A stretch of 60,732 nt of DNA from an uncultured Rikenellaceae bacterium (lineage in GTDB: Bacteria; Bacteroidota; Bacteroidia; Bacteroidales; VadinHA17). The notes beneath the pieces are model-generated. The model was given only the letters and a program-made list of their open reading frames with translations, did not search any database and had not been told where the DNA came from. Every line of letters begins with the position of its first letter. Position 1 is the stretch's first letter. The translations under genes and the position numbers were made by a program. The DNA lies in contig CAYQZL010000006.1 of NCBI GenBank assembly GCA_964421975.1, forward strand, positions 1 through 60,732, in the 5' to 3' direction. Shown here piece by piece: positions 56,254 to 58,625 of this stretch.

Positions 56254-57192
56254 ATGTATGGGTACGCACCAATGAAGCTATTCTCCTGCAGGTCATCACG
56301 TCATCTGGCTGAAAGAATAGCCGGAGAGCTTGGTCTGGAATTAGGTAAAAGCTCTGTTACCGAATTCAGTGACGGAGAATTCCAGCCTTGTTTCGATGAA
56401 TCAGTCAGAGGCGATATGGTATTTATTGTACAATCGACAAATCCTCCTGCCGATAATCTTTTTGAACTTCTTCTGATGATTGATGCAGCAAAAAGAGCTT
56501 CTGCATATAAGGTTATTGCGGTTATTCCCTATTATGGTTTTGCCCGTCAGGACAGAAAGGATCGCCCCCGTGTATCTATCGGTTCCAAACTATCGGCAGA
56601 CCTGCTGAGCGCTGCCGGTGTTGACAGGGTCATAACCATGGATCTTCATGCAGACCAGATACAGGGATTCTTTGACGTTCCGGTCGATCACCTCTTCGGT
56701 TCCGCTATCTTTGCACCATATATCCAGAATCTCAGACTGGATAACCTTGCTGTTTCCGCACCGGATATGGGAGGCTCCAAAAGAGCAAATGCATACTCCC
56801 GCCATCTTCAGTCGGAAATGGTCCTTTGCTACAAGCTGAGGAAAAAACCGAATATAATAGAGGAAATGTCGGTAATCGGCGAAGTGGAAGGCAGAAATAT
56901 CGTTATAATCGATGATATGGTTGATACGGCAGGTACAATCTCAATTGCCGCCAATATGATGAAAGAAAGAGGCGCAAAAAGTATCAGAGCTTTCGCAACA
57001 CATCCAATACTGTCGGGAAATGCAGTTGAAAAAATAAATAATTCCGCAATAGAAGAACTTGTGGTTACCGATTCAGTCCCTCTCAGAGTCCGCTCCGAAA
57101 AGATAAAAGTGCTTTCAATAGCTGAAATATTCGCGGGTACAATACGTGCGGTAAATACAAATCAGTCTATAAGCACCAGTTTTGTATTCTGA
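56254..57192 (+). CDS. prs: Ribose-phosphate pyrophosphokinase
   Basis: FSDGE, PYYGFARQDRK, MDLHA.QIQGFF, PDMGG, DDMVDTAGT; TAATTTTG -7 element at 56212-56219. Confidence 0.97.
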   Translation: MYGYAPMKLFSCRSSRHLAERIAGELGLELGKSSVTEFSDGEFQPCFDESVRGDMVFIVQSTNPPADNLFELLLMIDAAKRASAYKVIAVIPYYGFARQDRKDRPRVSIGSKLSADLLSAAGVDRVITMDLHADQIQGFFDVPVDHLFGSAIFAPYIQNLRLDNLAVSAPDMGGSKRANAYSRHLQSEMVLCYKLRKKPNIIEEMSVIGEVEGRNIVIIDDMVDTAGTISIAANMMKERGAKSIRAFATHPILSGNAVEKINNSAIEELVVTDSVPLRVRSEKIKVLSIAEIFAGTIRAVNTNQSISTSFVF

Positions 57193-57211
57193 TTACTTTG
57201 TCATATATTTG
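57181..57211 (+). promoter_or_regulatory. Canonical Bacteroidota sigma-A promoter of rplY
   Basis: TTTG (57181-84), 19-nt spacer, TATATTTG (57204-11). Confidence 0.75.
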
Positions 57212-57238
57212 CAGTCCGATTTTTTAAAAATGTCTAAC

Positions 57239-57279
57239 GTGTGATGGGGAGTTGCCGTGGTGGTAACTTTTAGTAGCAC
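57239..57279 (+). promoter_or_regulatory. Structured 5' leader of rplY with a loop-E-like internal loop (candidate L25 r-leader)
   Basis: GTGT-GATG-GGGAGTTGCC-GTGGT-GGTAACTTTT-AGTA-GCAC: 4-bp stem, 4x4 internal loop, 10-bp stem, 5-nt loop. Confidence 0.6.
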
Positions 57280-57295
57280 AACAACAACAGTATAA

Positions 57296-57979
57296 ATGAA
57301 GACAATTGAAATTAAGGGAACCCTCCGAAATGAAGTTGGAAAGAAACATACCAGGCAGATCAGAAAAGCCGGAAATGTACCCTGCATTATCTACGGAAAA
57401 GATAAGAACATTAACTTCAGTGCACATGAAAACAGTTTTAAAAAACTTGTTTATACACATGAGGCTCATCTGGTAGATCTGAATCTGGATGGTCAGGTTT
57501 TTAAGGCTGTTCTACATGATCTGCAGTTCCATCCTGTTACCGACAAGATATTACATATCGATTTCGTACAGGTATTTGATGAAAAACCGATAACAATGGA
57601 TGTTCCCGTTGTTATTACAGGTGATTCTGCCGGTGTCAAGGCCGGAGGTAAACTGAGTGTGAAAAAAAGACACCTGAAAATAAAAGGACTGGCAACTGAT
57701 CTTCCCGATCATATTGAGGTAGATGTTACTGACCTCAAGATCCATAATTCAGTGAAGGTCGGAGATCTTGCGATCAATAAAATAGAATTCCTCGATCCCA
57801 AAATAGCAACCGTTGTAACAGTTTCAACATCACGCGTTGCACTTAAAACAGAAGAAGAAATGGCTGCTGAAGCAGGTGCTGCCGCAACTGCTGAAGGTGC
57901 TGAAGGTGCTGCTGAAGCTGGCGCTGATGAAAAGGGAAAAGAGAAGGAAAAAGGTAAGGAAAAAGAAAAGAAAGCTTAA
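57296..57979 (+). CDS. rplY: 50S ribosomal protein L25 (Ctc/TL5 long form)
   Basis: R...GK...RQIRK.G.VPCIIYG, DLQFHPVTD.ILHIDF, GVKAGG, LPDHIEVD; Ala/Glu/Lys-rich tail. Confidence 0.96.
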   Translation: MKTIEIKGTLRNEVGKKHTRQIRKAGNVPCIIYGKDKNINFSAHENSFKKLVYTHEAHLVDLNLDGQVFKAVLHDLQFHPVTDKILHIDFVQVFDEKPITMDVPVVITGDSAGVKAGGKLSVKKRHLKIKGLATDLPDHIEVDVTDLKIHNSVKVGDLAINKIEFLDPKIATVVTVSTSRVALKTEEEMAAEAGAAATAEGAEGAAEAGADEKGKEKEKGKEKEKKA

Positions 57980-58004: not shown

Positions 58005-58625
58005 TTGAAATATCTGATAGTCGGCCTGGGAAATATAGGTGATGAATATGCCGGTACAAGGCATAACATAGGATTTATGGTTTTGGATGCCATGGTACAG
58101 GCATCCAATTCTTTTTTCACCGACCGCCGTTACGGTTTTATAAGTCAGATCAGATACAAGGGACGGGAACTGATCCTTCTTAAACCTTCAACATTCATGA
58201 ACCTTAGCGGTAATGCAGTCAGATACTGGCTGAACAGGGAAAAAATAGAACCCGGAAACCTTCTGGTTATCGTCGACGATATAGCACTTCCGCTGGGAAG
58301 CATCAGAATGAGGTCGAAAGGCAGCGATGGAGGTCATAACGGACTTGCACACATCACATCCGTCCTCGGAACAAACGAATATGCACGTATCAGAGTGGGT
58401 ATAGGAAACGGCTTCCGCAAAGGATCACAGGTAAACTATGTCCTTGGTACCTGGAGCCCCGAAGAACTGGAATTCCTGAAAAAGAGACTGGATATTGTCA
58501 TTGAAATGATCAGATCATTCGCTGCCGTGGGTACCGAACTCACTATGACAGCCTTCAACAAAACAGGAAAGATCAGAGGTAAAGATACTGACCAGGATAA
58601 AACGGCAGAACAGATCCGTGACTAA
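58005..58625 (+). CDS. pth: Peptidyl-tRNA hydrolase
   Basis: LIVGLGNIG.EY..TRHNIGF, KP.TFMNLSG, DD, GGHNGL, R.RVGIG; TTG start. Confidence 0.96.
   Translation: MKYLIVGLGNIGDEYAGTRHNIGFMVLDAMVQASNSFFTDRRYGFISQIRYKGRELILLKPSTFMNLSGNAVRYWLNREKIEPGNLLVIVDDIALPLGSIRMRSKGSDGGHNGLAHITSVLGTNEYARIRVGIGNGFRKGSQVNYVLGTWSPEELEFLKKRLDIVIEMIRSFAAVGTELTMTAFNKTGKIRGKDTDQDKTAEQIRD

Follow-up and report, generated by a model that had tools for sequence, protein, structure and literature searches.

What is the short hairpin that precedes rplY, the gene for ribosomal protein L25 (bL25), in an uncultured Rikenellaceae bacterium, and does it serve that gene? The locus lies on a 60,732-nucleotide (nt) stretch of DNA (contig CAYQZL010000006.1 of assembly GCA_964421975.1), which we refer to as the window, and the hairpin occupies positions 57239-57279 on the plus strand, shortly before the rplY start codon. 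Feedback on ribosomal proteins through mimics of ribosomal RNA (rRNA) is a textbook principle, and a first, sequence-only reading of the window had proposed that this hairpin imitates loop E of 5S rRNA and is bound by L25. The comparative data presented below show a strand-specific, conserved hairpin with a partial loop E in the 5' untranslated region (UTR) of rplY. We consider it probable, at roughly 0.78, that this hairpin is an L25-responsive, cis-acting autoregulatory leader of rplY mRNA which imitates the L25 site of 5S rRNA; that L25 binds it, that the effect would be repression and that it would act at translation initiation is what we infer from sequence comparison.

The hairpin in the window

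Read directly from the window sequence, the hairpin (GUGUGAUGGGGAGUUGCCGUGGUGGUAACUUUUAGUAGCAC) has an outer stem of four pairs (G39-C79, U40-A78, G41-C77 and U42.G76, numbered by the last two digits of 572xx), a symmetric 4x4 internal loop with GAUG (57243-46) opposite AGUA (57272-75), and an inner stem of ten pairs, four of them G.U, between 57247-56 and 57262-71. RNAfold returned the identical fold at -15.0 kcal/mol (z = -3.98, with 0 of 200 shuffled sequences folding as well), and this was the sole structure predicted in the 86-nt leader. Every base that the sequence-only reading had assigned to the 4-bp outer stem, the GAUG/AGUA loop and the GUGGU apical loop was borne out, with RNAfold in agreement, as was its placing of the hairpin end 16 nt before the rplY ATG at 57296. 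The 10-bp inner stem that it described can indeed form all ten pairs in the window; in most relatives, however, G47 stands opposite a G, so that position 47 belongs to a non-canonical stack and not to the inner helix. With this boundary, the parts of the hairpin are:

57239..57242, plus strand: outer stem, 5' strand GUGU (partner 57276-79)
57243..57247, plus strand: loop E-like 5' strand, G43 A44 U45 G46 G47, corresponding to 5S rRNA G72 A73 U74 G75 G76
57248..57256, plus strand: inner stem, 5' strand (partner 57262-70), standing in place of 5S helix IV
57257..57261, plus strand: apical loop GUGGU, which differs in sequence and length among relatives
57262..57270, plus strand: inner stem, 3' strand (from RNAfold and comparison)
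57271..57275, plus strand: loop E-like 3' strand, U71 A72 G73 U74 A75, corresponding to 5S rRNA G100 A101 G102 U103 A104
57276..57279, plus strand: outer stem, 3' strand GCAC (read directly and from RNAfold)

The opposite strand folded poorly (-4.3 kcal/mol, z = -0.89) and the hairpin leans on G.U pairs, so that the structure is expected in the mRNA sense only. The loop words by themselves are not rare, since GATGG-N10-40-AGTAG matched once in the window against 2.9 matches expected by chance; significance therefore has to come from the hairpin register, the position before rplY and conservation.

A partial copy of 5S rRNA loop E

Loop E consists of seven consecutive non-Watson-Crick pairs that are symmetric about G75.A101 (PMC1976436). 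It is highly conserved in bacteria and is the L25 site (PMC4408793), and the crystallised L25 complex contains exactly these loop E strands (PMC1920249). For the comparison we used an E. coli 5S sequence with 100% identity to annotated rrf in 5426 genomes, in which the strands are G72 A73 U74 G75 G76 U77 A78 and G98 A99 G100 A101 G102 U103 A104. On this verified sequence, the earlier statement that E. coli G72-G75 and A101-A104 equal the two strands of the leader was correct in both numbering and bases. The 5S genes of Bacteroides finegoldii, Segatella copri and Persicobacter (Cytophagales), each confirmed by RF00001 at 81-88 bits, read CCGAUGGUAC and GGGAGAGUAGG, so that their loop E is the same as that of E. 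coli; all four 5S RNAs carry CCGAUGGUA / GAGAGUAGG. Counted from the closing pair, the leader's GAUGG / (G)AGUAG falls in the 5S register, and over 10-12 bases the leader matches, in register, loop E of both E. coli and Bacteroidales 5S. Layer by layer, in 5S numbering, the bases are:

71-105: 5S C-G; window U.G; family majority U.G or U-A; B. finegoldii U-A; Phocaeicola and Prevotella U-A
72.104: 5S G.A; window G.A; family majority R.A; B. finegoldii G.A; Phocaeicola and Prevotella G.A
73.103: A.U in 5S, window, family majority, B. finegoldii, Phocaeicola and Prevotella
74.102: U.G in 5S, window, family majority, B. finegoldii, Phocaeicola and Prevotella
75.101: G.A in 5S, window, family majority, B. 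finegoldii, Phocaeicola and Prevotella
76.100: 5S G.G; window G.U; family majority G.G; B. finegoldii G.G; Phocaeicola and Prevotella G.G
77.99: 5S U.A; window G.U; family majority G.U; B. finegoldii U.A; Phocaeicola and Prevotella C.A
78.98: 5S A.G; window G.U; family majority R-Y; B. finegoldii G.U; Phocaeicola and Prevotella G.U

The window keeps four layers together with a G.U at 76.100, most relatives keep five, and A78.G98 is never kept. The fullest copy is found in B. finegoldii, where the leader (GUGUGAUGGUGAAUU...AAUUUAGAGUAACAC, with GAUGGU / AGAGUA) reproduces six of the seven loop E layers of the 5S rRNA of its own strain. Judged by its bases, the leader is a partial copy and not a full loop E. 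The mimicry that had been proposed against the E. coli molecule holds on cognate Bacteroidales 5S rRNA, and it reaches further than proposed, because most relatives also copy G76.G100 and Bacteroides copies U77.A99 as well.

Run on the E. coli rrf locus, a covariance model of the leader gave five hits at noise level; the best was nt 71-105, in register and gap-free over the 35 central positions of the model (4.4 bits, E = 1.5), and this match was not counted as evidence. A search for 5S rRNA in the fetched rplY loci, by regular expression and nhmmer, found none. The argument draws its weight from three things that coincide: the hairpin covaries but its loop is invariant, this loop equals loop E in register, and the downstream gene encodes the one protein that binds loop E.

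Linkage to rplY across the Bacteroidales

We gathered a genome set of 80 rplY loci by L25 protein homology, so that sampling was independent of the RNA. The pattern GUG[UC][GA]AUGG - variable stem-loop - [UGA]AGUA[GA]CA[CU] was present 6-28 nt before the rplY start in 55 of these 80 loci. All carriers were among the 58 Bacteroidales-type loci, where the exceptions were L029, L062 and L065, and the hairpin was absent from 22 of 22 Flavobacteriales loci. A covariance model (R1) built from 34 equal-length family members gave 55 hits in 340 kb of window and loci (E = 1e-16 to 0.5), all on the sense strand directly before rplY, and no other site in the same 340 kb at E <= 10.

Of the three exceptions, L029 (positions 110-160), from the Bacteroidales metagenome-assembled genome Gw_SlDig_bin_226, has a hairpin like the others in shape and position, but with altered loop E bases (AUGCAGCGAAGUU...AACUUUUAGCAU); the copy seems to have decayed, which would be a natural loss in a single lineage. 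At L062 and L065 the promoter is followed by simple hairpins unrelated to the element. In the Flavobacteriales loci (L046-L080) and in Chryseobacterium (L209), only a few tens of bases separate rplY from the stop codon of prs; rplY has neither a promoter box of its own nor a hairpin there, and it is probably co-transcribed with prs.

A metagenome scan with the pattern GTGTRATGGG-N8-38-AGTARCAC returned at least 120 matching loci. The GATGGG that this pattern requires leaves out the variants GAUGGU and GAUGGC of Bacteroides, Phocaeicola and Prevotella, which the covariance model recovers. In at least 88 matches an L25 open reading frame lay 3-27 nt downstream, its protein 29-72% identical to that of the window, and among the matches listed 3 more ended at a contig edge. 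The other listed matches had no stem and lay in coding or repeat DNA, in about the number expected by chance for such a pattern. Two of them (L083 and L136) fell inside a coding region on the other strand, and four (L095, L097, L104 and L150) fell in repeated eukaryote-like sequence with neither an Rfam match nor an L25 gene; all six were judged to be chance matches. The latter four share the same 28-nt GUGUAAUGGGCGAUGCCAAUAGUAGCAC on four contigs of sample Ga0307511 (L095:813-840, L097:57-84, L104:3221-3248 and L150:3374-3401), a retroelement-like repeat.

Exact protein look-ups placed carriers in Muribaculum, Muribaculaceae, Parabacteroides distasonis and Porphyromonas. For named species, rplY loci and 5S genes were taken from chromosome fragments that are filed as plasmids in PLSDB. 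R1 found the leader at rplY of B. finegoldii, Phocaeicola massiliensis, P. distasonis and Prevotella sp. oral taxon 299 (E = 9e-9 to 7e-5), and no leader at the Chryseobacterium rplY locus. Besides rRNA operons, six of the PLSDB records (NZ_OY725918.1, NZ_CP085934.1, NZ_OY725932.1, OY725992.1, NZ_OY725754.1 and NC_022111.1; L202, L203 and L205-L208), which span B. finegoldii, P. massiliensis, P. distasonis, S. copri and Prevotella, contain core genes (nusB, rplY, pth). Evidently these records are pieces of chromosomes or else second chromosomes, which is a caveat for plasmid statistics.

Taken over all sets, about 150 instances of the hairpin were found, each 3-28 nt before rplY on the sense strand, and the linkage to rplY was exclusive. 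Among the loci sampled, which were of Bacteroidales type or from Flavobacteriales, the element is order-wide in Bacteroidales. The first reading had spoken of Bacteroidota, a scope that stands for the Bacteroidales and not for the whole phylum, since Flavobacteriales are without the element.

Conservation and covariation

In the genome-set alignment, the inner stem showed compensatory changes at 8 of its 10 pairs. Cells with a double change numbered 111, against 27.8 +/- 6.5 in shuffled alignments, and none of 500 shuffles reached 111. When the 3' partners were slid by 1-3 columns, double-change cells fell to 31 or fewer and the paired fraction dropped from 90% to 30-65%. A second alignment (A4) of 74 distinct hairpins with the apical part removed gave a similar picture, with 125 double-change cells against 29.6 in shuffles. 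The inner stem is free in both sequence and length, and the hairpins of relatives measure between 31 and 62 nt in all.

Unlike the stem, the internal loop hardly varied. A44, U45, G46 and G47 on one strand and A72, G73, U74 and A75 on the other were invariant in the 55 unique genome-set hairpins. Position 43 is G or A across the family, and since sheared G.A and A.A pairs are isosteric, either base fits the geometry of loop E. Position 71, the counterpart of 5S position 100, was G in 74, U in 28 and A in 7 of 109 unique hairpins; because G and U are the carbonyl acceptors in the bifurcated pairs G76.G100 and G102.U74, this preference also fits loop E. G48.U70 was retained in 125 of 135 unique hairpins.

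The outer stem GUGU/GCAC was 100% pairable in the 55 unique genome-set hairpins, invariant save for its closing pair, and showed no covariation. The closing pair is U.G, U-A or C-G (U42 is replaced by C in two hairpins, paired with G, and G76 alternates with A); C77 and A78 are invariant, and C79 is U in a single locus (L021). Altogether, the expectation of an invariant GAUG/AGUA with covarying stems came true for AUG/AGUA and for the inner stem, and failed at position 43, which is G or A, and at the outer stem, which is invariant.

Promoter, 5' UTR and start region

The remaining features of the rplY transcription unit in the window are:

57181..57211, plus strand: Bacteroidetes-type promoter, with -33 TTTG at 57181-84, a 19-nt spacer and -7 TAtaTTTG at 57204-11
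57216..57295, plus strand: predicted rplY 5' UTR of about 80 nt, its start site placed by the -7 box
57233..57238, plus strand: single-stranded 5' flank UCUAAC (clade consensus UCNAAC), conserved in alignment A2
57280..57295, plus strand: A-rich spacer AACAACAACAGUAUAA with no Shine-Dalgarno (SD) sequence, the presumed 30S landing site (read directly)
57296..57979, plus strand: rplY, coding for a two-domain (CTC-type) bL25 of 227 aa, with Pfam domains PF01386 and PF14693 in all homologues

Both boxes of the canonical promoter that had been reported at 57181-57211 are present in the window sequence, and we take them to be of the Bacteroides type from the consensus. The -33 element still belongs to the 3' end of prs. 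Upstream of the hairpin, at a distance of 16-37 nt, the genome-set loci have a TAnnTT[TC]G box, and such a box was also found in 74 of 83 metagenome instances. Metatranscriptomes contain the leader, as contigs of 100% identity cover 57204-57394, 57247-57791 and 57254-57530. One contig, of run X3, runs unbroken over 56973-57697, from inside prs through promoter and leader into rplY, which points either to transcription reading through from prs or to DNA in the library. In three other runs the contigs begin at 57204-57254. The transcription start was also sought in assembled Logan contigs, where isolate transcriptome contigs of 5-10 kb had flat depth and gave no 5' end.

In alignment A2 of the 5' flank, A4 and A5 were invariant and T1, C2 and C6 were at least 90% conserved; other Bacteroidales clades have YCC at this site instead of UCNAAC. 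A long-range helix between UGUC in the 5' flank and GACA before the AUG was considered and rejected as a family feature, because it occurs in some clades only and is missing in the window and in L001 and L002. In the leaders of B. finegoldii (L205:1415-1445) and P. massiliensis (L206:505-535) we observed a direct repeat of CAUCGUGUGAU, of which one copy is the hairpin 5' strand and the second, about 17 nt upstream, offers a possible alternative partner (GUGU) for the 3' strand ACAC. An adjacent CAC-AUC-GUG in both leaders could compete with the outer stem, and the repeat may be an alternative fold or a remnant of duplication.

The spacer between hairpin and AUG had a median length of 15 nt in 143 instances (3-8 nt in some lineages), with 59% A and 6% G, and SD-like tetramers occurred in 2 of the 143. 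Start selection in Bacteroidia relies on upstream adenines rather than on SD pairing (PMC13000457), and no Bacteroidetes rplY has a strong SD (PMC7797042). Since Bacteroidia work without SD pairing, the 30S subunit would have to load on the A-rich stretch that begins where the hairpin ends. The lack of a U-tract after the hairpin makes attenuation unlikely.

The bL25 protein and neighbouring genes

The closest solved relative of the window bL25 is chain 7jil_V of the Flavobacterium johnsoniae ribosome, and the alignment runs from residue 1, which fixes the start codon at 57296. Five residues that we take to be the RNA-binding ones of the family (R10, R19, Y29, H85 and D87 of TL5) map to R11, R23, Y33, H87 and D89 of bL25, all invariant. 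The C-terminal tail (window 57850-57976) is of low complexity, rich in Ala/Glu/Gly and then in Lys/Glu (…AAEAGAAATAEGAEGAAEAGADEKGKEKEKGKEKEKKA), and it differs in length and composition among relatives.

In the window, rplY is preceded by prs and followed by pth and an S4-domain gene. A terminator-like hairpin with a T-run (TTGGATGCCATGGTACAGGCATCCAA TTCTTTTTTC) lies at 58083-58118, about 100 nt past the end of rplY and early in the coding region of pth. With one such site against 0.9 expected in the scanned region, it may be due to chance.

Comparison with known leaders

Searches against Rfam 15 gave no family at gathering score in the window, nor any match at E <= 10 in 57150-57350. There was likewise no Rfam 15 match to the Bacteroides, Phocaeicola, Parabacteroides and Prevotella leaders, and the 5S model RF00001, with which true 5S genes score 81-93 bits, had no hit in the window. 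The Rfam comparison that the first reading had called for therefore assigned neither the window nor the four named-species leaders to a known family. Its remark that no Bacteroidota L25 leader had been described agrees with the open-access papers and preprints searched, in which we found none, a description elsewhere being possible.

Autoregulation of rplY in Gammaproteobacteria, to which the first reading had appealed, does have its precedent in E. coli (PMC4408793). Like the Bacteroidales element, the E. coli leader is a cis element in the 5' UTR of a monocistronic rplY, just before a weak or absent SD, and there too L25 is proposed to repress its own translation by competing with 30S. The two nevertheless share no homology of sequence or structure. 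The authors who described the E. coli operator hairpin HII state that it bears no resemblance to loop E (Aseev, Bylinkina & Boni 2015, PMC4408793). The conserved GAGA(G) SD-like element on which control of the E. coli type depends is absent from the Bacteroidales element, and the protein is a short one-domain L25 there, as opposed to the 227-aa two-domain bL25 of the window. Features of the E. coli type are confined to families with short one-domain L25 (PMC4408793), and a 2024 review repeats this limit and lists nothing for two-domain bL25. As all three features of the gammaproteobacterial leader are missing, the Bacteroidales element is not a member of that family.

With the 5S loop E/helix IV region itself (PDB 1DFU and 1D6K; Thermus thermophilus TL5, 1FEU), the leader shares bases and register for layers 72.104-76.100, and to 77.99 in Bacteroides, as well as a flanking closing pair and a helix with a small capping loop. 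It differs in that A78.G98, and mostly also U77.A99, are replaced by G.U or Watson-Crick pairs, that the sequences of helix V and helix IV are unrelated, and that the leader belongs to an mRNA. The known rRNA-mimic leaders (S8/spc, L1, L20, S15 and L10; PMC10931766) follow the same principle, in which an mRNA copy of an rRNA site lets surplus protein feed back. The difference lies in the host, because in Bacteroidales, which do without SD pairing, occlusion would have to act on an A-rich, unstructured landing site. The nearest candidates by organism are the L13 and S4 leaders of Bacteroidia (Eckert & Weinberg 2020, PMC7247131), which are likewise comparative-genomics hairpins upstream of ribosomal protein genes in this class, but which concern other genes and other structures, the S4 motifs being without rRNA resemblance. 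An L25 leader is listed there for Enterobacteria only, with none for Bacteroidia (PMC7247131). The Bacteroidales element would be the first L25 leader with evident mimicry.

Proposed mechanism and alternatives

If the hairpin is an autoregulatory leader, the dedicated promoter would yield a 5' UTR of about 80 nt that presents layers 72.104 to 76.100 of loop E with a helix on each side. bL25 made in excess of free 5S rRNA would bind this mimic as it binds 5S, and the bound protein of about 25 kDa would clamp the weak 4-bp outer stem about 15 nt (in some lineages 3-8 nt) upstream of the AUG. The clamped stem would shut 30S out of the short, A-rich, SD-less region, so that translation of rplY would fall. 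Such feedback would be of the displacement or competition type, as argued for E. coli rplY.

Several points weigh against this interpretation. The transcription start of rplY is a prediction, the RNA contigs giving no 5' end. The window copies only 4-5 of the 7 loop E layers (6 are copied in Bacteroides), the layers nearest helix IV are replaced by G.U and Watson-Crick pairs, and it is these helix IV-side layers that we take to be the docking place of L25's helix. The leader model did not recover loop E in the three Bacteroidota 5S loci and did so at only 4.4 bits in E. coli 5S, and a likeness of 10-12 nt is too short for significance alone. Because the metagenome set was chosen by pattern, loop invariance in it is circular and only the genome set is unbiased. 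The outer stem, lacking covariation, has an unproven pairing, and the invariance of its sequence is unexplained by simple 5S mimicry. In E. coli, moreover, L25 failed to shift rplY leader RNA in vitro (PMC4408793).

Could the hairpin act without any protein, as a 5' UTR stem-loop that tunes the stability or basal translation of rplY mRNA and resembles loop E incidentally? Bacterial mRNAs commonly have stable 5' hairpins, and the chance frequency of the GATGG...AGTAG words in the window and the non-significant covariance-model similarity to 5S agree with such a role. A stability hairpin, however, needs pairs and not eight invariant unpaired bases, and here the loop stays constant while the sequence of the stem turns over. 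That loop matches, in register, the binding site of the very protein encoded downstream; the number of layers kept differs by lineage with the register always the same, and the element lies about 20 nt inside the predicted transcript and not at its 5' end. We regard this explanation as quite improbable. An element working at the level of transcription, whether an intrinsic attenuator or a DNA operator in the form of an inverted repeat, is more improbable by far. The inverted repeat does lie 27 nt past the -7 box, but the hairpin has no U-tract, its 3' flank is A-rich (59% A), and no terminator-like site was called there. On the other strand its conserved G.U pairs would turn into C.A mismatches, and in DNA they would be mismatched as well, in line with the folding energies of the two strands (-4.3 kcal/mol for the minus strand and -15.0 kcal/mol for the plus strand), and its stem varies freely in length and sequence, unlike a protein operator.

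A loop E-like module might also dock a different partner, since modules of this type recur in many RNAs as docking sites (PMC8080527). The candidates would be another ribosomal protein, an assembly factor, an RNase or a tertiary RNA contact, or else the C-terminal domain of bL25 beyond the N-domain alone. That loop E is copied in part only, and that the invariant outer stem and conserved flanks are unexplained by 5S mimicry, would suit such a partner. It is nevertheless unlikely in view of the exclusive linkage to rplY in about 150 instances, and bacterial loop E is bound by L25 and by no other known protein (PMC4408793). As a specific form of this idea, the invariant outer stem and flanks, which have no counterpart in 5S, might be read by the C-terminal domain of the two-domain bL25, a suggestion that we hold to be unlikely. 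Feedback by bL25 on its own mRNA through a partial copy of loop E is the interpretation that we prefer.

Implications for Bacteroidales

The element is a minimal candidate of about 40 nt in which mimicry is visible base by base. It occurs in the culturable gut and oral genera Bacteroides, Phocaeicola, Parabacteroides, Prevotella, Porphyromonas and Muribaculum, whose ribosomes ignore the SD, and its natural variants with 4, 5 or 6 of the 7 layers make the loop E requirement for L25 recognition testable. The family is a ready seed for an Rfam entry and a possible compact, protein-responsive RNA part for Bacteroides engineering. It also opens to experiment the way in which a repressor can stop initiation where the mRNA has no SD and depends on adenines. 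Were the C-terminal domain of bL25 to read the leader, this would be the first defined RNA ligand for that long-unexplained domain, and translation of rplY would be a read-out of the balance between free bL25 and 5S rRNA in a non-SD system.

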